This document shows positions 1,219-63,462 of a stretch of DNA of 64,000 bases, piece by piece. The stretch's first letter is position 1. Every line of letters starts with the position of its first letter. The stretch is from sequence record MT682711.1; one strand, 5' to 3'. Position numbers and translations under genes: made by a program. Source of the DNA: Escherichia phage vB_EcoM_FB. The notes below the pieces were generated by a model. That model was not told the DNA's origin and did not search any database. It was given only the letters and a program-made list of their open reading frames with translations.

Positions 1219-1261
1219 ATAAATATCTTTATCGGTCGCTGTATCAAATAAGGATTTGATA

Positions 1262-1978
1262 ATGAATTATAAATCAATATACGAAAAGCTTATTCAACGA
1301 GCAGTTAATAGAAATTTAACTACCTATAAAGAACGTCATCACATTATACCACAATGTATGGGTGGAACGGATGACGCTTTAAACTTGGTAGACTTAACAC
1401 CTGAAGAACATTACTTGGCTCATCAGTTGTTAGTTAAAATCCATCCAGATAATGTATCACTAGTCTATGCGGCAAGAATGATGACAATTAGCTCACCAAA
1501 TGCTGATAGGTCTAAAAATAAATTATTTGGATGGCTTCGTCGTAAGAATTCAGAAGTCCAAAAGGATAAAGAATTCTCGGAAGAAACCAGAAAGAAAATG
1601 TCGATTTCTGCTTTAAAAAAGCCTAGAGTTACCTGTCCACACTGTGGTAAAACCGGTTTGGTAGGCAATATGAACAGATGGCATTTTGATAATTGTCCTA
1701 AAGGCCCTAATAAAGTGGTTCATACTATACCAAAAGAACAAAAAGATAAAATATCAAACACTTTTAAGAATAAAGTATTTGAATTGGTTAATTGCCAGTT
1801 TTGTGGTATAGAAGGTAAGAAGAGCGTTATAGTAACCCATCAATATTTTTGCAAATTAAACCCTAACCGTAAAAAGAAAGAGGACCCTAAAATAAAGTGT
1901 CCTCATTGCGATAAAGTAGGAATACCTGCCAATATGAAACGTTGGCATTTTGATAATTGCAAATTAAAGCCTCAATAA
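1262..1978 (+). CDS. HNH homing endonuclease (Mob-like) with three C-terminal zinc-finger repeats
   Basis: N-terminal KERHHIIPQCMGGTDDALNLVDLTPEEHYLAHQ HNH motif; three CxxC..W/HxFDNC repeats; track start 1256 is TTG, ATG at 1262 with AAGGA upstream. Confidence 0.75.
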   Translation: MNYKSIYEKLIQRAVNRNLTTYKERHHIIPQCMGGTDDALNLVDLTPEEHYLAHQLLVKIHPDNVSLVYAARMMTISSPNADRSKNKLFGWLRRKNSEVQKDKEFSEETRKKMSISALKKPRVTCPHCGKTGLVGNMNRWHFDNCPKGPNKVVHTIPKEQKDKISNTFKNKVFELVNCQFCGIEGKKSVIVTHQYFCKLNPNRKKKEDPKIKCPHCDKVGIPANMKRWHFDNCKLKPQ

Positions 1979-6298: not shown

Positions 6299-6839
6299 AT
6301 AAAAAATCCAGTTCACCAACTTTAGGTTCGGCACTCTTATCAGACCCTGGTGCTTTAGTTAAAGAGGTTTCATACTGAGTCATTTTGTCGTAGATATCTT
6401 GGATAAAGGTTTCATCTGCAATACCTACCATGTCGTCATCATTACTGTCATAGACATTATGGACGAAGTAGCTATATTTCTTTGCCATTTCTTTACGTTC
6501 TTTTTTGATACGCTGAACGAAGGCATTAAAACAAGCCATAGTGATATATGCATGTGGGTTGTCGTATTTTGTTTCGTCGAAATTGTGAAGACCTTTAATC
6601 GAAGCTTCGATTCCATCAGCTATCATTTCCTGCCGCCAAGATTGGGTATATCCTGAGAAGTTGAAACGCTTGCTGAGGCCTTCTGCTATAAGCATAATAG
6701 CCAATCCTATAGTATCATTTTGTCTAATGATTTTATTAGGGTCGGTGTTAGCATATAATTCCTGCTTCCAACTTGTAATAGCTTTAAGAAGCTCCTTGTT
6801 ATTTACATAATTATTTTTTGTTAACTTCACCTGATTCAT
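6282..6839 (-). CDS. 55: late-transcription sigma factor gp55
   Basis: [58 protein letters not shown] matches T4 gp55 as recalled; start at ATG 6839. Confidence 0.9.
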
Positions 6840-7506
6840 AAGCCCTCTTAAACCTATCAACTAGTGGTCTAAAATTATTTATCGTATATGGATAACCTAG
6901 TTCACAGCATTTGCGCCAGAATTTAGAATAACTAGGGCGTCCTTCCTTAATCCAAAGTTCATGGAACTCATCATATAATACATATGTTGGATTTTTAGCA
7001 AACTTGGAATAATTCTCTATAGAGTAATATTCTTTGTTCTTTTTACTTTTGGCCTCTCTAACTTCAGGATTAGCATTATACTCTTTATGGATTCGACGCA
7101 TCATTTCTCGATGCTCTTCATTTTCCCAAGACTTTTTAATAGAGTTGGAAACCCGCTCTTTATATTCAGGGTCCTGCCAGCGTTCGGTAACTTCTTTAGA
7201 CTGTTCTTCAAGTCTTTCCGGTGTCGGAGGAGCATAACCACCTATACCACCAGGTTTCATATTGACGCAGTTAGTTATTTCGGACATGGCATTTTCTACC
7301 AAAAGCTCTTCAAATTCAAAAGCAAGCTCACTTGTCTCAAAATAACATAAGGCCTCTATATTAAAAGAGCATTTCCCTGAGGCCTTAGCATCTTCTACGA
7401 ATTTGCCACTACCGACATACCCGTCATCTATAAATCCGGTGTGTTTACCGAAATAGTAATAAGTATCATTTTCGGATTTTATAGTGGTCATATAACAATA
7501 GTGCAT
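6811..7506 (-). CDS. GIY-YIG-like (Seg-type) homing endonuclease, motif partly degenerate
   Basis: [20 protein letters not shown] and [10 protein letters not shown] parallel the intact Seg-like protein at 44737; overlaps gene 55 start. Confidence 0.5.
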
Positions 7507-16992: not shown

Positions 16993-17007
16993 GTTAACCT
17001 CCAGTAG

Positions 17008-17047
17008 TTGATAGGTCTATAGTATCATTCCTACTGGAGATGTAAAC
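17008..17047 (-). promoter_or_regulatory. early promoter-hairpin cassette (PeSL-like)
   Basis: Plus strand TTGATAGGTCTATAGTATCA..TGTAAAC; flanking inverted repeat CCAGTAG/CTACTGG. Confidence 0.5.
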
Positions 17048-21706: not shown

Positions 21707-21723
21707 TCTGTTCTCCTCATTAG

Positions 21724-21763
21724 TTGATAGGTCTATAGTATCATGTTCCTAGAGGATGTAAAC
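21724..21763 (-). promoter_or_regulatory. early promoter-hairpin cassette (PeSL-like)
   Basis: TTGATAGGTCTATAGTATCA..TGTAAAC. Confidence 0.5.
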
Positions 21764-23613: not shown

Positions 23614-23822
23614 AACCATTGCACCTTTAAGCAATATTCTTCTACATGCTGTTTACGTTTATTTTTATCTATAAAAGTATATTCAACATATTCGCCGATA
23701 TACCATTTATCGGTGTTGTGTTGACTTTTTATAGGGCATTTAGTTACTCGGGTTTCGGTCCAGCGTCGAATAATTTCCGCTTTGTTTTTAGGGTCAAACG
23801 GATGCGGGTAATGGGCTTTCAT
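23610..23822 (-). CDS. hypothetical protein
   Basis: 70-codon ATG ORF. Confidence 0.4.
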   Translation of the reverse strand: MKAHYPHPFDPKNKAEIIRRWTETRVTKCPIKSQHNTDKWYIGEYVEYTFIDKNKRKQHVEEYCLKVQWL

Positions 23823-24261
23823 AATCTACCACCACTAAATTAATATCAGGAGTAAACAAATTAATCAATTGATAAACCTTGTCCCAATCACCACCGGCAA
23901 TACCACAACCGATGCGAGGAATATAAATTCTGGGTTTAAACAAAAGACCCTTTGCGGTACGGTTTAATTCTATCATACAGTTTACTAAAGCACCATAATC
24001 AAGATTAGGGCCTGGTTCGTATTGGGTGTATAAATTATAGCAAATTTGGCCCTTATTACCTGTGGCTTGAGTAAACGTGCCAAGTTTTTCCAAATTGCCT
24101 AAATAAGTGGTTTTATCAATAGCAAGAATAGGTGGATATGCCTTAGCCAATTGACCTGCTACACCTGAACCCATAGTATGAAAACAGTTACACCCATGAG
24201 CAACGTTATTACCCTGAAGAAACAGGGCGACGATATCGCCCTTAATATAATCAATAATCAT
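23794..24261 (-). CDS. macro-domain (ADP-ribose binding/processing) protein
   Basis: GDIVALF..NNVAHGCNCFHTMGSGVAGQLAKA and IGCGIAGGDW resemble macro-domain motifs. Confidence 0.6.
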   Translation of the reverse strand: MIIDYIKGDIVALFLQGNNVAHGCNCFHTMGSGVAGQLAKAYPPILAIDKTTYLGNLEKLGTFTQATGNKGQICYNLYTQYEPGPNLDYGALVNCMIELNRTAKGLLFKPRIYIPRIGCGIAGGDWDKVYQLINLFTPDINLVVVDYESPLPASV

Positions 24262-24614: not shown

Positions 24615-25172
24615 TTAATATACCGCCTCAAACATCTTTTTAGATTTTAGGTAATTGGCCTTTTCTAGAACTTCCGAAGCATATTTACTACCTGCTTTGA
24701 AATTCCAGCCCGCATTATAAGAAGCAATCGCTTTTCTCAGGTCACCTTTGTGAACATTAATCCAATAAGACAGCTCAATGTAGGCCCAAGAGGCACTGTA
24801 CTGTCGGTTTTGGACCATACGAATTATTTCTTTATCTGACATCTTCCAACCTACCTGTTTAACACGACTTCTTAACGTAGGCAAGTAATTTTGGAACATG
24901 CCATAAGCATGGTGCTTATCTTTATTTAAACCTTGATTAATCCCAGCAGATGATTCCTGCCATAATAATCCAGCCATTATATATCCTAATCCTTTTTGAT
25001 TAGGGGTTTCTTTGAACTTTCCCGACTTTTGGTATTGTTCACCGAAAGCATACGCATAATGTAAATTATCTAGCTGGGTTTCTGTAAATACGGGTTCTGC
25101 TGCACTTACAGAAAACGAACCGCACATAATAGCCGCTATTAAAGAATATTTAAGTTTTTTTAGAAAAATCAT
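24615..25172 (-). CDS. secreted lytic transglycosylase-like protein
   Basis: Signal peptide then LLWQESS..GMFQ..YNAG motifs; track start TTG, ATG at 25172. Confidence 0.55.
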   Translation of the reverse strand: MIFLKKLKYSLIAAIMCGSFSVSAAEPVFTETQLDNLHYAYAFGEQYQKSGKFKETPNQKGLGYIMAGLLWQESSAGINQGLNKDKHHAYGMFQNYLPTLRSRVKQVGWKMSDKEIIRMVQNRQYSASWAYIELSYWINVHKGDLRKAIASYNAGWNFKAGSKYASEVLEKANYLKSKKMFEAVY

Positions 25173-25884
25173 AATCAATAAGTCCTCGGTAATCTACATT
25201 AGGGAAGCCATTCTTAATTGCGATTTTACTAAATCTTCCACACTTTGGTTTATTATTATCTACCCATAATTTATATAATTGTGAATACATTGGTTCACGC
25301 CATATAGGAGCCTTTCGCAAAGAGGCCTTTTTCCTTTCTATAGTTTCCTTAGAATTTTGTATGGCTTTAAATTTTTGTCTATTTTCAGGATTTTCAAAAT
25401 ACTTAACCCGTTTTTCAGACATTTTAGCTTTTACTTTTGGCGAATTTAAAATTTCTTTGAGCCGTTCTTTAGAGCCTTCCTTTTCAAAATATTTTATTAA
25501 AGCCTTTGAATGGGCCGCCCTATTTTCATTTTTAGAGAAGAATAAAATTTTATTAATAGATTGCAGTTTTGAAAATGATTCTTTAGCCAACTTATAATTT
25601 TCAGCATCTACAAAATAAGACCTTTGCTTTGAATTTGAAGTAGAGCTCATATTTAGCCAAGCAAAATTCAACCCGTAGTGGTTTGGATTAGCTTTGGCTA
25701 AATACATATGGGCTAAATAGTGTTCGTCAGCATAAAGCTCGACTAAATTGTCTTGGGTGTCAGGACCACCAACACAACTCGGTATTATATGGTGCTTTTC
25801 TGTATAGGCATCATTAGGTGTATCCCTAGATAAGGCAGCATTTATTATTTTATAGTAGTCATATGGATATTTTATAGTTTCCAT
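25150..25884 (-). CDS. HNH homing endonuclease (Mob-like)
   Basis: EKHHIIPSCVGGPDTQDNLVELYADEHYLAH. Confidence 0.75.
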   Translation of the reverse strand: METIKYPYDYYKIINAALSRDTPNDAYTEKHHIIPSCVGGPDTQDNLVELYADEHYLAHMYLAKANPNHYGLNFAWLNMSSTSNSKQRSYFVDAENYKLAKESFSKLQSINKILFFSKNENRAAHSKALIKYFEKEGSKERLKEILNSPKVKAKMSEKRVKYFENPENRQKFKAIQNSKETIERKKASLRKAPIWREPMYSQLYKLWVDNNKPKCGRFSKIAIKNGFPNVDYRGLIDYDFSKKT

Positions 25885-25891
25885 ACTATCC

Positions 25892-26350
25892 TCACAAGTA
25901 AATAACTTTCGTGCTGGTTTTACCTTCTAAACGTTTAGAGTTAACAAATGCCATACGACATTTAAGGGAATATCCTTTATCAGGATGTTTACGGTCTACT
26001 GTCATACCTAGCCATAAGGTTTTATCGGTAATTTCGAGACGCAATGGACGATACACTTTACCAGGGACAATTTCGGATTCTACATCAGGTAGAGGTTCCT
26101 GGATTAAAAATTCATGAATTTCTTTAACATGGTTATGGAGTTGCTTGAATAAAGCAAAAACGTATTTTTCGTCGATTTCACGTTGGATAGCACGGTCCAA
26201 CAAGTGATTAGAGTACTTAATAAAGAAGGCTGGGACTCCGCTCTTGATGGCGGCTTTTTTGATGGACGTATTCAGTTCACGGAATTCGGTTTCGAACTGA
26301 CGACGTAATTTATTGCGGCGGATGAATACTTCTGAATTAATTTCTGACAT
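25892..26350 (-). CDS. regB: RegB-like endoribonuclease
   Basis: 152 aa; EVFIRRNKLRR..HLLDRAIQREIDE matches T4 RegB as recalled. Confidence 0.7.
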   Translation of the reverse strand: MSEINSEVFIRRNKLRRQFETEFRELNTSIKKAAIKSGVPAFFIKYSNHLLDRAIQREIDEKYVFALFKQLHNHVKEIHEFLIQEPLPDVESEIVPGKVYRPLRLEITDKTLWLGMTVDRKHPDKGYSLKCRMAFVNSKRLEGKTSTKVIYL

Positions 26351-26367
26351 TTTGTAATCTCCTGTAG

Positions 26368-26407
26368 TTGATAGGTCTATAGTACCACGTCTACAGGAGA
26401 TGTAAAC
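26368..26407 (-). promoter_or_regulatory. early promoter-hairpin cassette (PeSL-like)
   Basis: TTGATAGGTCTATAGTACCA..TGTAAAC; inverted repeat CTCCTGTAG/CTACAGGAG covers the SD. Confidence 0.5.
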
Positions 26408-26411
26408 TGCT

Positions 26412-26621
26412 TTATTCTTGGAATGGGGTAAGTTTTCCAGCAGCTGAACAAATTTCTACCAGTACAGGGTAAAACTCTTTCACTTGTTCAAGGCGTTGGG
26501 CTGCATACTGTACTTCACCTTCTTCGAGACAAGCCATTTGGTCGTCAAGCAAGTATTTGTGGTAGCCAGTACAGGCTTCACCGATAATACGCTGGAAATC
26601 TTGTAAACTTTCAATTTTCAT
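26412..26621 (-). CDS. hypothetical protein
   Basis: Start at ATG 26621 with GAGGAA upstream. Confidence 0.4.
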   Translation of the reverse strand: MKIESLQDFQRIIGEACTGYHKYLLDDQMACLEEGEVQYAAQRLEQVKEFYPVLVEICSAAGKLTPFQE

Positions 26622-26899
26622 CAGTATTTTTCCTCGGGTTGGAAAACGGAACGACACGCCCACATGCTTGCTTCTTTCAGACGGTCAATTGCATTACGAA
26701 TCTGGGTGATGCGTTCATGAGCCTGGTCTAGTTCTTGTTCATAAACCTCTTCGGTATCTAAGTTCATATAATGAGTAACATGTTCTTCTTCCAGAGCTTT
26801 AAACATTAACCCAAGACGAACTTCAGCATCTTTGATAGCTTTTACTTTACCGATTTTATCGTCGGTATGCGGCTTATAACCCTTGATATCTTCAATCAT
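26621..26899 (-). CDS. hypothetical protein
   Basis: 92-codon ATG ORF, ATGA coupling. Confidence 0.45.
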   Translation of the reverse strand: MIEDIKGYKPHTDDKIGKVKAIKDAEVRLGLMFKALEEEHVTHYMNLDTEEVYEQELDQAHERITQIRNAIDRLKEASMWACRSVFQPEEKY

Positions 26900-27114
26900 T
26901 TCACTTCCTCGCCAGTTGCGATATCATATTCTACCAAACGAAGGCCTTCAGTCCAACCTTGCACGGAGATATAGGTAGTCGGGTAAATCATTTCTTTACC
27001 ATTCCACCGACCGCCATCCCAGACTTCCAGAAAGTCTTGTTCACCTGGTCCATTAAGCCATTCAACAAATCTTTTCAGAGCTTCTTCAGAACCTTCAATT
27101 GTCAATTTAGACAT
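26896..27114 (-). CDS. hypothetical protein
   Basis: 72-codon ATG ORF. Confidence 0.4.
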   Translation of the reverse strand: MSKLTIEGSEEALKRFVEWLNGPGEQDFLEVWDGGRWNGKEMIYPTTYISVQGWTEGLRLVEYDIATGEEVK

Positions 27115-27403
27115 ATTTTTTCCAATCAGAAATCATATGAATCTCTTGGTCATAAGTCAAGAGACTACGAGCAATAATACCCTTACAAGGCCCTGAGATG
27201 AACTCGAGAGTGAAGTAAGGAACCTGTTTCATTAATCGGATACTAGGAGCATGACATCTAAAACGAGAGCCCTTAAAGGGCCCTGTCATGAATACATATT
27301 CCAATGGGTAGAAATAAGCATATTCGAAATTTGCAGTAAGGTCCTCTCTTCGAACCTTACGTGAGAAATAACAGAACTCAAAAAGTTCTTCATCAGTCAT
27401 CAT
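27107..27403 (-). CDS. hypothetical protein
   Basis: Start at ATG 27403, ATGA overlap with upstream stop. Confidence 0.4.
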   Translation of the reverse strand: MMTDEELFEFCYFSRKVRREDLTANFEYAYFYPLEYVFMTGPFKGSRFRCHAPSIRLMKQVPYFTLEFISGPCKGIIARSLLTYDQEIHMISDWKKYV

Positions 27404-27927
27404 TGCATTCCTATCACAAAGAACAGAGGCAAAGGCTTGTCGCCTTGGCACATAAATTTATTAATCATTACCTGGTAAGCTTCATAGAACTTATCCATCG
27501 CTGGAAGGCGCATTGGCTCTTCGATAATAATCAATAATCGAGTAACAGATAGTCCACGATACTTATGGAAATTGTCTTCATCAAGGAAACTGCGCACAGT
27601 ATCATAGACAACAAAACCAGGACCTTCGACTTGGAGATGTGGGTGTGCCTTAGAAACCTGTTTTATTACATTACAAATTTCTCGCGAGCGATGCGAAGAA
27701 CTCGACATAACAATCACATCATTACCCTTGGAAACCCAATCAGCGGCGAACTGGGCAAGGGCACTTGTTTTACCTGTTTGGCGTCCGCCATCAAGTCGAA
27801 GAGTACCAAACTCTTGCATTCTTGAAGCAGGTTCATACCATGTGTATTGGTCTGAGTCTAAACGTTCAATGGCGCGTTCAGCGAAGGCGTGCATTAAGGT
27901 TAGATAAATGGGAGTTAAAAATTTCAT
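27400..27927 (-). CDS. P-loop NTPase-like protein
   Basis: Walker A-like GGRQTGKTSA. Confidence 0.45.
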   Translation of the reverse strand: MKFLTPIYLTLMHAFAERAIERLDSDQYTWYEPASRMQEFGTLRLDGGRQTGKTSALAQFAADWVSKGNDVIVMSSSSHRSREICNVIKQVSKAHPHLQVEGPGFVVYDTVRSFLDEDNFHKYRGLSVTRLLIIIEEPMRLPAMDKFYEAYQVMINKFMCQGDKPLPLFFVIGMQ

Positions 27928-28087
27928 AGTAGTCTCTTAGTGGTGGGGCCATTCCTTGGCACATAATTCGTCCATGTATCCGTATGTAAACCCTTTACCG
28001 CACTTGGGCTCGACCTTATTACAGGTAGGGAAAGGTCCATCACTCAGAGGACGCGACGTTCATGAGGAGAGGGCCGGCTTGCCTTTA

Positions 28088-28387
28088 TTAGAAAGAACCA
28101 GAACCTCTAATTGTGTTCTGGCGACCTTTATTTTCTAATTCGGAGTGGTCGATTTCATATGCTTGTGCTACGCCAAAGGCCTTTTTAACTTTAGCTAAAG
28201 AACCTTTAGATGTAACAATATTAAAAGTATTACCTTTGGTAAAATCAACAAAATCGACTTGTACGCCCTGTTTACCGAGGCTTGCTACAATAGCATCAAC
28301 ATATTCTTGGTCTAAATTGCCTTGAACTCCAATTTGAAATGCTTTAGGAGCTTTGGCTTCTGTGATAAATTCTTGATAAGTTTTCAT
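28088..28387 (-). CDS. internal head protein (IPII-like) with capsid-targeting leader
   Basis: N-terminus MKTYQEFITEA matches T4 internal-protein leader; 99 aa. Confidence 0.6.
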   Translation of the reverse strand: MKTYQEFITEAKAPKAFQIGVQGNLDQEYVDAIVASLGKQGVQVDFVDFTKGNTFNIVTSKGSLAKVKKAFGVAQAYEIDHSELENKGRQNTIRGSGSF

Positions 28388-28430
28388 TGTTATTCCTTAA
28401 GTTGATAGAAGTATTCTATCACGGATTTAA

Positions 28431-28847
28431 TTAAGCGTAAATAGCCTTGCCATAATGTTTGTACCAGGTAGGACGCTGTGCAATTTTTTCATCCAAACGG
28501 GTCTGAGATATAGCAATAGAAGCTTCGTGTGGAGTATAGTCACCACGGAATTCCTGAGGAATGTCACTAATGTCCTGGACAGTAGTATCCTTGATATTAA
28601 AACCACGTTTTAAACATTCGGCTATAAGCTCAATTTGTCGCTTACGTAAAAATTCAAGCTTATCGTAAAAGAATGTAACATGGCCTGTGCCAAGGATAAA
28701 AGTAGGACTGATTTTGAAATCACGGACACGTTTACCATTAGCAACATGCTTACGAACTGCACCGAAAACACGTGGTAATTCACGATATTCAGCCATTAAG
28801 TGTTGGTCAGCCAATTCAGATACTAAGGTAAGGTTGATACGAGTCAT
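28431..28847 (-). CDS. denV: endonuclease V (pyrimidine-dimer DNA glycosylase) DenV
   Basis: 138 aa, [31 protein letters not shown].. almost identical to T4 endonuclease V as recalled. Confidence 0.9.
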
Positions 28848-28863
28848 TTTTAATCTCCTGTAG

Positions 28864-28903
28864 TTGATAGGTCTATAGTATCATGACTACAGGAGATGTA
28901 AAC
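28864..28903 (-). promoter_or_regulatory. early promoter-hairpin cassette (PeSL-like)
   Basis: TTGATAGGTCTATAGTATCA..TGTAAAC; inverted repeat CTCCTGTAG/CTACAGGAG. Confidence 0.5.
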
Positions 28904-28927: not shown

Positions 28928-29524
28928 TTAATTACCACGGGCTGCATTAGCAACGGCGTAAGCGTACTGAATATTAGCGTCTTTAAACGTACCTTTAGAG
29001 GTATCTATCTCTGCCTTAAAGCCGCCTTTAACCATAACATCAGCAAATTCTTTACGGAAAGTCATTGCATCAAGACCTTTCCATGCGGATTTATGCTTGG
29101 CAAATTCAAGACCGGCGAAGTTAACTGCTTTAGCCAATTTATTATCAATAGTCCATTTACCTGCTTTAGGTACAAACACCGGGCCTTTCTGTTTAGAGAA
29201 CAGTTTTAAATTCCAGCGACGAAGGTCACCGTCAGCTTTAACAAAAGCTGCGTCCAAGTTACTAGCAACAACATCTTGGATATGGGCAAATTTAAGTCCA
29301 TCAGCTTCAATATTTAGGTCGTTACGCCAGCGAAGTCCTTCCCAGGCGAAAGCTTTAAAGTCGGAAGCTTTTGTAGCCAAGTACCGTTCAATAGGAGCTG
29401 TTTTAGCGTCAAAACCGTTTCCTGGGTTGTCAACGCCGTTTCCTTTGTAAGTCCACTCATCTTTATTAATGCCTTGGACCTTTCCTACAGAAGCTTCGGC
29501 GATAAATTCTTTATACGTTTTCAT
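28928..29524 (-). CDS. internal head protein (IPIII-like) with capsid-targeting leader
   Basis: N-terminus MKTYKEFIAEA; 198 aa. Confidence 0.6.
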   Translation of the reverse strand: MKTYKEFIAEASVGKVQGINKDEWTYKGNGVDNPGNGFDAKTAPIERYLATKASDFKAFAWEGLRWRNDLNIEADGLKFAHIQDVVASNLDAAFVKADGDLRRWNLKLFSKQKGPVFVPKAGKWTIDNKLAKAVNFAGLEFAKHKSAWKGLDAMTFRKEFADVMVKGGFKAEIDTSKGTFKDANIQYAYAVANAARGN

Positions 29525-29562
29525 ACGGGTTCCTTAAAGGTAAATATTTTAATTGGTCTGTT

Positions 29563-29606
29563 CAAGTAACTGTAGATATACTATCACAATTCTAGGAGAT
29601 GTAAAC
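29563..29606 (-). promoter_or_regulatory. early promoter candidate, divergent cassette
   Basis: TGTAAAC present but core replaced by ..GTAGATATACTATCA.. Confidence 0.35.
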
Positions 29607-30005
29607 TTATTTATGGGTCTTCATCCAATTCTTGAACAAAGCCGCGACGTCTTTCTCTTTAACGTTCAGTTTAATGTCCAACATTTTACCACCCGCTGCT
29701 CTGGTTTGGCGAATCTTAGCAGTACCGGTTTCGCCATTCCACTCAACATAATACTGTCCAGTGTTCATTGCAATACCATCACCGTAGTCTTCATTTTTAG
29801 AAGTGGTGAATGCTAGCTTCATAGTCTTAGATACACGAGCCTGCATGCCTGTCTGAAGGGCATTACGAACGCGAATAACCTGAGGAGTGGCCTGGGTCAA
29901 GTTCTCATTCAGTTCTTCAGTGAACTCTTCAGATTCAAACATCGCCAAAAGTTCTTTAGATGCAGGAATTACATTCTCTGCGATAAATTCATTATAAGTT
30001 TTCAT
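29607..30005 (-). CDS. additional internal-protein-like gene with capsid-targeting leader
   Basis: N-terminus [11 protein letters not shown]; 132 aa. Confidence 0.55.
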
Positions 30006-30486
30006 ATGCTTTCCAAGTACCTGTTTTAAATGTTGAAATCACGCGCTTAGCACGATTAGGAGTTTGTTTATACCAACGGGATTGAGCCAGGTTAACTGCC
30101 GCATCGTTCCAACGTTTCTGTTGGAGCATACGTAAAGAGTTAGTGAACCCTGCTACGCCTGCTTCACCCATTTGGAAGACCATGTTAATTAAAGCACAAC
30201 GACGAACTTCGTCCAGTACATCATAAACAGGTTTCAATTTAGGATTACGCAGAATAGCTCTACGAGCATTTTCAACCGATCGATTAAAGAGTTGCTCGGC
30301 TTCAGCCATAGTAATACGACCATTACAAACTCGACCCATAAGCTTATCAAGTTCAGCGCGAGCAACGTCTTTAGATGGGTTCTTGGTAATCAACTGACCA
30401 ATGCCAATAGTCCAATAACCTTCGGTGTCTTTATAAAGATTTAAATCAAGACCTTCGTCTTGACGTAACATATCAAAAATATCCAT
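29992..30486 (-). CDS. e: lysozyme e (endolysin)
   Basis: 164 aa; Glu11, Asp20, Thr26 conserved; [31 protein letters not shown] as in T4 lysozyme. Confidence 0.9.
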
Positions 30487-32716: not shown

Positions 32717-32756
32717 TTGATAGGTCTATAGTATCACACCTATAGACCTTGTACAC
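32717..32756 (-). promoter_or_regulatory. early promoter-hairpin cassette (PeSL-like), -35 variant TGTACAC
   Basis: TTGATAGGTCTATAGTATCACACCTATAGACC; inverted repeat GGTCTATAG/CTATAGACC. Confidence 0.45.
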
Positions 32757-32768
32757 TGTTTTATGCAA

Positions 32769-38008: not shown

Positions 38009-38048
38009 TTGATAGGTCTATAGTATCATGTTTAAAGGAGGTGTAAAC
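38009..38048 (-). promoter_or_regulatory. early promoter-hairpin cassette (PeSL-like)
   Basis: TTGATAGGTCTATAGTATCA..TGTAAAC. Confidence 0.5.
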
Positions 38049-38071
38049 ATCTTTTTAAACTTTTTAGAAAC

Positions 38072-38778: not shown

Positions 38779-38854
38779 TGGTCGAGGCAGTAGGGATCGA
38801 ACCTACGACCTAGGACTTAGAAGGTCCTTGCTCTTCCTTCTGAGCTATGCCCCG
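38779..38854 (-). tRNA. tRNA-Arg (anticodon UCU), CCA encoded
   Basis: 76 nt cloverleaf folded by hand: 7-bp acceptor with one G-U, GG in D-loop, anticodon loop CUUCUAA, T-loop TTCGATC. Confidence 0.8.
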
Positions 38855-38857
38855 TAA

Positions 38858-39490
38858 TTAAAATTTCATTTTTCGACCTTTAAACCATCCTTCTGGAATT
38901 GGGTCAGTTTTCTTAATACGTTTAGAAACTTTTTCATCTAATGAATGAATCCACATCATACCAAATTGGGAATTCTTTTCGCCCTGTTGATGTTTATTTC
39001 TGGCGTGAGATTCTTTCATTTTATTAATAGTTTCAGGAGTATGATGCTTATTTAAAAATCTGCTATTATTTAAAAATTTTTCCCTGTATTCAGGAGTTGA
39101 CCACAAGCGTTTAAATACATTTGAACCATGTTTACGATATTTTTCTTGAAGTAAAATATCACTTTTAAAACGTGACTTAAACGATTTAGCTCCTTTTAAA
39201 CTAGCGTCTTTCTTCTGGTTTAGCATCCCAGGAATATTTATATGGTCCCAACCACCTTCACCACCTAATTTCAAATTATAAACATCAGGGCGCTTTAAAA
39301 ACTCTTCAGTCACAATATTCTTTTCTGACTCAAACATAGAGGTTTTATCGTCAAAGAACTCTCTAATATTTCTTTAGAAAAATTTTCTATACCATACTTA
39401 TCTTGGGCTCTTTTTAATAATTTACCAGAACCCATATATCCATCATCTAAATTTTCGGTAGAATGAGCGCCTATATAGATTTTTATTATT
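38858..39490 (-). pseudogene. decayed GIY-YIG (Seg-like) homing endonuclease gene
   Basis: Upstream frame encodes ..[23 protein letters not shown] with no ATG, stop immediately upstream; downstream 159-codon frame continues the homology after a frameshift at GAGAG. Confidence 0.6.
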
Positions 39491-39567
39491 AATTTTATTT
39501 GTTATTTTATAAATGTAATGGAACATAAATATCTCCTATTTCTAAGAGTATTTATGTTCCCAAAATA

Positions 39568-62817: not shown

Positions 62818-63462
62818 ATGAACTATAATAAGATTTACAAATCTTTAATAAATAAGGGCCTCGAAAGAGGTCTAAATAAAAAGAAGGTAGGGTTTTATAC
62901 AGAGAAGCATCATATTGTCCCTAAATCCATGGGTGGTAGTGAAGACAAATCTAATTTTGTTCTTTTAACCGCTAGAGAACATTTTGTAGCTCATCAATTA
63001 TTGTATAAAATACACAAAAACCGTTCTATGGCCCATGCTATGATTAATATGTGTGCTGATAGCACAGGTAATAGGGTTAATTCTAAGTTATTAGATTGGC
63101 ACCGTAAAGCTAAGGCTAGGGCCCAAAGCGAGATGGTTTCAGGTGAAAACCATCCTATGTATAACAAGAAACATAAAAAAGAAACATTAGAAAAAATGAG
63201 ATTGGCCAAATTAGGCGTCCCATGGACTGAAGAAGTTAAGGAATCTAGAAGAGAAGAATTACTTAAAACCTCTGAACATGCTAGGACTTTCATCGACTAT
63301 AAATCTGGCGGAGAAAATTCAGCCGCAAAGAAAATATGTATAGAAGGTATAGTATTTGATTATATGGAAGAAGCGGTTCCTTGGTGTAATATATCAAGAA
63401 GAACTCTTTTAAATAGAATCAAATCTTCAGACCCTAAATGGAGGGATTGGAATTATGTCTAA
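62818..63462 (+). CDS. HNH homing endonuclease (Mob-like)
   Basis: [32 protein letters not shown]; starts 3 nt after gene 13 stop, overlaps gene 14 start. Confidence 0.75.

Follow-up and report, generated by a model that had tools for sequence, protein, structure and literature searches.

The denV gene of Escherichia phage vB_EcoM_FB raises the question of where its close likeness to phage T4 comes from. In the following, the window is the whole stretch of 64,000 nucleotides that was analysed. An earlier note, made from the letters of the window, had described denV as almost identical to the T4 gene among clearly diverged neighbours, and had called this consistent with a recent horizontal exchange of a module bounded by two promoter cassettes. 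The gene in question is:

28431-28847, minus strand: denV, encoding a 138-aa pyrimidine-dimer DNA glycosylase/AP lyase of the T4 endonuclease V type (from the ORF list, Pfam and an alignment to 2END)

The PDB and Pfam matches settle the identity of the protein. The product matches the Pfam family Pyr_excise (PF03013) with a score of 54.8 bits (cut-off 23; E 1.3e-14), and it can be aligned end to end, over residues 1-138, to the crystal sequence 2END of T4 endonuclease V, with 134 of 138 positions identical. Its length of 138 aa is that of the T4 enzyme (PF03013; PDB 2END, 1VAS). From T4 to the window, the substitutions are A54T, I105T, A116T and Y131H. The N-terminal Thr2, Arg3, Arg22, Glu23 and Arg26 are the same in both proteins; we take the Thr2 amine at the N-terminus, Glu23 and Arg3/22/26 to be catalytic or DNA-binding residues of the T4 enzyme. 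We predict that the window encodes a functional T4-type endonuclease V. At the level of the gene, window and T4 are 97.1% identical in amino acids and 91.3% in nucleotides, and most of the approximately 36 nucleotide differences are silent. The nucleotide identity to denV of Dhakavirus QL01 is 100%. The gene also occupies the same slot as in T4, between internal-protein genes and vs.8; unlike in T4, a 99-aa internal-protein gene lies downstream of denV in the window, with a promoter that overlaps the last denV codons.

We compared 66 annotated T4 genes (NC_000866, locus L005) to the window using blastp-anchored codon alignments and Nei-Gojobori counts of the differences at silent (pS) and other (pN) sites. 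A match in the window was found for 46 of the 66 genes. Three neighbours of denV are central to the comparison:

29992-30486, minus strand: e (lysozyme), a backbone comparison gene; 74-76% aa and 73% nt identity to T4, pS 0.62
27400-27927, minus strand: homologue of vs.8, a backbone comparison gene; 38% aa and 53% nt identity to T4, pS 0.66
28928-29524, minus strand: ipIII (internal head protein III); 91.0% nt and 87-90% aa identity to T4, pS 0.23

Among the 46 matched genes, denV has the highest amino acid identity to T4, and the median for the 43 background genes is 61%, with a maximum of 86% (nrdC). The gene-by-gene comparison that the earlier note had called for thus places denV above its flanks, where amino acid identity is 38% for vs.8, 47% for vs.7, 58% for regB and 60.5% for nudE. 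The note was also right that the denV product differs from T4 at a handful of positions (four in 138 aa) and that lysozyme and the baseplate proteins carry many substitutions, as the identity is 74-76% for e, 62% for gp53, 64% for gp5 and 69% for gp6. Its description of the neighbours as clearly diverged is correct for most flanking genes (38-76% aa) but not for ipIII, which is adjacent upstream and as close to T4 in its DNA as denV. The amino acid identity of ipIII is lower than that of denV because ipIII is less constrained (pN 0.053 vs 0.012). Downstream of denV, the genes in 26412-28387 have 38-63% amino acid identity to T4 or are unmatched.

A protein may be similar because it is constrained. 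If denV had descended vertically under very strong purifying selection, it would be the slowest-evolving gene of the region and no exchange would be needed. Its pN of 0.012 to T4 is indeed the lowest in the window, and RB69 denV is still 91% identical in amino acids to T4 or to the window at saturated silent sites (pS 0.63-0.69), so that constraint explains much of the amino acid identity. The silent sites of denV, however, do not follow the background. In the 43 background genes pS to T4 ranges from 0.50 to 0.95 and is saturated (pooled 0.73); only three of the 46 genes fall below 0.50, namely ipIII (0.23), segB (0.28) and denV (0.36). The denV value of 0.356 is thus about half of the background, with a binomial P of 3e-13 against the pooled background and of 4e-3 against the lowest background gene. 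Silent sites in denV are free to diverge, since the alleles of T4, ime09 and RB69 differ from each other at pS 0.63-0.70. Furthermore, the weakly constrained neighbour ipIII has a similarly low pS, and T4 denV is just 70% identical in nucleotides and 77% in amino acids to its congener ime09, though the flanks are at 89-98%. Purifying selection as the only cause is rejected by the synonymous differences and by the incongruence described below, and we consider vertical descent without exchange extremely improbable. Protein constraint accounts for part, but not all, of the likeness of denV to T4. Because ipIII also has a low pS, the island of low divergence comprises ipIII and denV, and for these two genes the common ancestor of window and T4 is more recent than for the remainder of the genome.

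Whose allele is it? The best 20-kb matches of the window are C6, AnYang, MX01, IME08, Bp7 and QL01, at 91-95%, and in denV, ipIII, vs.8, vs.7, vs.3 and regB its identity to QL01 is approximately 100%. We classify the window on these matches as a Dhakavirus, that is, a T-even phage of the JS98/QL01 type. When T4 is compared to the Tequatrovirus ime09, the genes e.2, nudE, e, vs.8, vs.7, vs.4, vs.3, regB, vs.1, vs and tk have 89-98% nucleotide identity, whereas the same genes have 52-73% between T4 and the window. The pattern is reversed in denV, where T4 is at 91% nt and 97% aa to the window and at the much lower values given above to ime09; ipIII is absent from ime09 and RB69. The gene trees of denV and its flanks are thus incongruent, which is the phylogenetic test that the earlier note had suggested, and this incongruence requires that some DNA was exchanged horizontally between the lineages of T4 and Dhakavirus.

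The window itself does not stand out within its genus. Its pS to T4 (denV 0.36, ipIII 0.23) matches its pS to VR5, a comparison within the genus (0.37 and 0.22), so that the window denV is ordinary for the genus and the T4 allele is of the Dhakavirus type. The window has the normal Dhakavirus allele, and the odd one out is T4. Between T4 and VR5, denV has 95% nt and 97% aa identity and a pS of 0.19.

A second case of incongruence is found at the tk.4 homologue (23794-24261, minus strand). Here T4 and ime09 are 63% identical in nucleotides and the window and ime09 76%, while the genes neighbouring tk.4 are at 95-98% between T4 and ime09. This suggests a separate allele replacement within Tequatrovirus.

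Similarity is symmetrical, and a direction cannot come from distance alone. A T4-like Tequatrovirus might thus have been the source from which the window phage or an ancestor of the Dhakaviruses took denV, either alone or together with ipIII. The distribution of the allele argues against this. We used the denV genes of the window and of T4 as separate megablast queries against 50,697 phage records, and 66 records matched each. The 60 of 66 matches listed per query are Dhakavirus-type phages (89-100% nt), T4 records and RB55/RB59. Among the matches listed, the Dhakavirus-type allele occurs at 89-100% nt in about 50 genomes, and every Dhakavirus record listed has it, at that identity to the window or to T4. 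Tequatroviruses are represented among these 60 of 66 only by the T4 records and by RB55/RB59, in which the block does not differ from that of T4 (100% identity); no other Tequatrovirus with the Dhakavirus-type denV was found there. In many other Tequatroviruses (ime09, phiD1, DalCa, PhiZZ6), denV aligns at approximately 76% and over nt 1-290 only. A neighbour-joining tree of 12 denV alleles points in the same direction, as T4 groups with VR5 inside the diversity of Dhakavirus. The clade of Dhakavirus and T4 has 100% bootstrap support and T4 with VR5 has 72%, whereas Dhakavirus without T4 is monophyletic in just 13% of the replicates. Lastly, T4 ceases to resemble ime09 over precisely the ipIII-ipII-denV block. 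A transfer from a T4-like phage into Dhakavirus is thus unlikely. The opposite direction, in which the window denV belongs to its own genus and the likely recipient is T4, is based on the nesting of T4 with VR5, which has moderate support (72%), and on the distribution. It could also be that an unsampled third lineage gave the block to both.

We conclude, with a probability of about three in four, that T4 carries a Dhakavirus-type block of approximately 1.6 kb, which consists of the last ~50 nt of e, ipIII, ipII and denV, and that the rest is Tequatrovirus backbone. The identity between T4 and ime09 is 92.6% as far as the end of e and is again high, at 95.5%, from the denV stop onwards. Between e and the denV stop, ime09 has no counterpart of T4 ipIII and ipII, and its denV is 76% identical over the first 330 nt. 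We mapped the crossovers with a T4-anchored 60-nt identity profile and informative sites. The left crossover is at L005 18799-18802, which corresponds to about 66,554-66,557 in NC_000866, inside e and 52-55 nt before its stop; sites to the left of it are mostly ime09-like, and all informative sites after it agree with VR5 and ESCO10. On the right, the last codons of T4 denV (ATTTATGCATAA) are VR5-like, and the sequence is ime09-like from the base after the denV stop, at about 64,939 in NC_000866. The right-hand junction adjoins the following element:

27928-28087, minus strand: conserved non-coding element upstream of vs.8, where the similarity between T4 and ime09 resumes; right-hand junction region of the T4 block

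This element (L005 20418-20556 in T4) has a core of approximately 36 nt, ACCTGTAATAAGGTCGAGCCCAAGTGCGGTAAnGGG, that is nearly invariant in eight phages from four genera. Its neighbours, vs.8 and similar genes, are only ~50-55% identical in nucleotides between the window and T4, ime09 or RB69. The core is preceded by a hairpin that occurs in two forms with changes on both sides, and is then followed by the hairpin GCCAnGGAATGGC. The annotated T4 vs.8 (219 aa) overlaps the element, and the orthologues in ime09, RB69 and VR5 begin at a methionine of the MRTFLTGPYLS type. The annotated start of T4 vs.8 is probably ~40 codons early, which concerns L005 20444-20560 (NC_000866 about 64,796-64,912).

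The T4 modules have different closest relatives: VR5 for ipIII (95.8% nt) and denV (95% nt), and MX01 for ipII (94.7% nt). The best match thus varies by module, and the block may have been assembled in more than one step. As the closest Dhakavirus alleles differ by 4-5% from T4, no sequenced phage is the donor. The T4 order ipIII-ipII-denV is found in several Dhakaviruses, including MX01, C6, AnYang and fDHCT2. Against our conclusion, pairs of ipIII and ipII are also present in some of the phages listed whose denV is about 77% identical. The pS of T4 to the closest Dhakavirus alleles is 0.13-0.20, similar to the 0.09-0.26 between T4 and ime09 in the backbone. By this measure, the exchange has about the same age as the Tequatrovirus diversification and is not recent in absolute terms. 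Of the claim of a recent horizontal exchange, the exchange is supported by low pS and incongruence, whereas recent can be said only in relative terms, given the pS of 0.36 between window and T4.

We next consider the proposed boundaries. The repeats that the earlier note called cassettes combine an early promoter with a stem-loop, and three full-length copies are present in the window:

28854-28903, minus strand: early-promoter/stem-loop cassette of 50 nt upstream of denV, with the sequence GTTTACATCTCCTGTAGTCATGATACTATAGACCTATCAACTACAGGAGA
26358-26407, minus strand: second copy, upstream of regB (25892-26350), with three mismatches; not a boundary of the T4-like tract
16998-17047, minus strand: third copy, full-length, upstream of a homologue of nrdC.8, with five mismatches and a compensatory A/T swap in the stem

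No such 50-nt copies occurred in 20 shuffles of the sequence. Partial copies are located at 38009-38063, 32717-32760 and 21709-21763. In the denV cassette, the promoter has a -35 box TTTACA (28902-28897), a 16-nt spacer and a -10 box TACTAT with TG (28880-28875). A sigma-70 scan of the window gave no overall enrichment (10 sites vs 8.1 expected); we therefore read the element as a promoter because of its position, its repetition and the published early consensus of the T4 type, and not because of the number of sites. The hairpin of the denV cassette has a folding energy of -20.7 kcal/mol (z = -5.2), within a range of -18 to -21 kcal/mol (z -3.3 to -5.2) for the cassettes overall. The promoter spacer contains the 5' arm of its stem (28897-28887), and the Shine-Dalgarno motif GGAG (28858-28855) is part of the 3' arm (28863-28853). 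The stem is kept by changes on both sides, both in the copy at 16998 (CTCCAGTAG/CTACTGGAG) and in ime09 (CCTCCAAG/CTTGGAGG). From this arrangement we infer that the hairpin would form only in transcripts that begin upstream, where it would mask the ribosome-binding site or attenuate read-through. At the gathering score, Rfam matched only two tRNAs in the window, and neither the cassette nor the element upstream of vs.8 had a match.

Cassettes do flank denV as described, with ends at 28903 and 26407, but the copy at 26407 is unrelated to the T4-like tract. The proposed module from 28903 to 26407 does not agree with the data: the unit includes ipIII, T4 similarity stops at the denV stop (28431), and 26412-28387 is not T4-like. 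We therefore rejected this interval as the exchanged module. Cassettes were likewise rejected as ends of the T4 block on both sides, as the breakpoints, which the earlier note had proposed to map at the flanking cassettes, lie inside the 3' end of e and at about the denV stop. Where the cassette does coincide with a junction is in the presence or absence of ipII. The tract of high identity between window and T4 ends exactly at 28903, the 5' end of the denV cassette, and resumes in the tail of ipIII; it breaks there because the window lacks ipII at this position. The cassettes thus appear to mark indels of single internal-protein genes, and not the two ends of the T4 block.

Further elements of the internal-protein locus in the window are:

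29525-29607, minus strand: upstream promoter element of ipIII (GTTTACATCTCCTAGAATTGTGATAGTAT...), with its -35 box at 29605; a homologous element precedes ipIII and ipII in T4
28088-28387, minus strand: 99-aa internal-protein-like gene with the leader MKTYQEFITEA, between denV and vs.8; absent from T4 and VR5
29607-30005, minus strand: 132-aa gene with an IP-type leader, between e and ipIII

The order of the modules from e to vs.8 varies between phages:

Window and QL01: 132-aa gene, ipIII, denV, 99-aa gene
JS98: ipIII, 132-aa gene, denV, 99-aa gene
MX01: 132-aa gene, ipIII, ipII, denV, 99-aa gene
VR5: ip3, ip7, denV
ESCO10: denV, 119-aa gene, 99-aa gene

In JS98 (locus L014 4909-5944), the 132-aa gene is on the other side of ipIII compared to the window (28928-30005), QL01 and MX01. 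This swap of ipIII and the 132-aa gene is a rearrangement within one genus, so module order varies even among close relatives. The promoter region of the 99-aa gene (28413-28441) has its -35 box, TTTACG (28441-28436), within the final denV codons. Phages with the 99-aa gene have ATTTACGCTTAA at the 3' end of denV, and phages without it have ATTTATGCATAA; T4 and VR5, which do not have the gene, have TTTATG at the -35 position. In the phages compared, the 3' end of denV thus co-varies with the presence of the downstream 99-aa module.

Homing endonucleases offer another route into the locus. A seg or mob enzyme might have cut nearby during a mixed infection, and repair might have co-converted the flanking ipIII-denV DNA. 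Several homing-endonuclease genes are present in the window, including an HNH mobD-like ORF (25150-25884) at ~2.5 kb from denV, and the third T4-like island is segB itself. Homing-endonuclease genes have also been discussed as possible mediators of mosaicism at a distance (PMC2993671), although the same source states that action at distant loci is without experimental evidence. Against this route, there is no endonuclease gene between e and regB in T4, nor beside denV in the window, QL01, JS98, VR5 or MX01, and the DNA from the HNH ORF to denV is not T4-like. We consider this explanation very unlikely.

The homing-endonuclease-like ORFs of the window are at 25150-25884 (minus strand), 1256-1978 (plus), 62818-63462 (plus) and 6811-7506 (minus); of these four, three resemble mobD (HNH) and one resembles segB (31% aa). 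The ORF at 25150-25884 sits between vs.1 and regB, where T4, JS98 and QL01 have no endonuclease. Separately, a segB-like GIY-YIG gene (38858-39526, minus strand) adjoins a tRNA (38782-38854) and has 90.6% nt identity and a pS of 0.28 to T4 segB. It has a pair of frameshifts, out and back, in the N-terminal GIY-YIG region, which suggests that the copy is decaying or that the sequence contains an error. At this site, JS98 has the tRNAs and lacks segB.

We thus return to a replacement in T4 as the best explanation. During a mixed infection, homologous recombination would have brought the version of a Dhakavirus-like donor into the T4 lineage, where it took the place of this part of the internal-protein locus. 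One crossover would have occurred in the conserved 3' end of e, and the other at the denV stop, beside the conserved element upstream of vs.8. The cassettes before each small gene would be the junctions where ipII, the 99-aa gene and the 132-aa gene come and go. A bolder version, which we put forward tentatively and hold to be rather doubtful, is that T4 endonuclease V, IpIII and IpII are all non-native to the T4 lineage and derive from Dhakavirus as one block, and that denV might be a fixed anchor in a locus that is shuffled by way of the cassettes and travels between T-even genera, perhaps via cassette-bounded mini-circles.

The locus provides a clean and quantified module exchange between two T-even genera, with both crossovers placed within a few bases. 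Because T4 itself is mosaic here, genes of this locus are poorly judged by their similarity to the T4 orthologue. For the annotation and phylogeny of T4-like phages, denV and the internal-protein genes are thus unsuited as lineage markers. The denV locus reveals no new mechanism and no new gene function. In the papers searched, we found no statement that describes the T4 ipIII-ipII-denV block as Dhakavirus-like or that links denV with JS98/T4 mosaicism. Events of this kind are well known from this hypervariable segment (PMC2993671, PMC2839356, PMC4122927), and the Dhakavirus-like block in T4 is a modest addition.

Lastly, we compared the cassettes and the block to known systems. Promoter/stem-loop elements that flank the internal-protein loci of T-even phages have been proposed to have a role in gene shuffling (Repoila et al. 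1994, as cited in a passage of PMC2839356; PMC4122927), and regulatory cassettes of a related design, the promoter-early stem-loops (PeSL), have been described (Arbiol et al. 2010, PMC2839356; Comeau et al. 2014, PMC4122927). In PMC2839356, reporter assays and inverse PCR were used for promoter and terminator activity and for mini-circles. Like the PeSL-type and T-even elements, the window cassette is a short intergenic repeat with an early promoter and a stable stem-loop. It is close to the consensus reported for the PST/T4 pair, TTTACW...N17...TAYWAT, with a -35 box GTTTACA and a -10 box TACTAT. As for PeSL-type elements, it is located in a hyperplastic region before small non-essential genes, and the presence, absence and order of genes appear to vary at such cassettes between close relatives. 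Unlike in PeSL, the stem of the window cassette is AT-rich and has no polyG/polyC, as the papers state for T-even elements, and its 5' arm lies in the promoter spacer and its 3' arm over the ribosome-binding site. By this layout, the cassette would resemble a device that masks translation of read-through transcripts more than a terminator ahead of a promoter. Furthermore, in contrast to PeSL-bounded shuffling, neither end of the T4 block maps within a cassette. On a larger scale, a segment of ~40-75 kb in T4-related genomes is hypervariable and mosaic (Petrov et al. 2010, PMC2993671). The denV locus lies in this segment and has the same allele replacement and indels between lineages. Compared to the mosaicism described there, the recipient is here apparently the reference phage T4, and the type of the donor, Dhakavirus, can be named.
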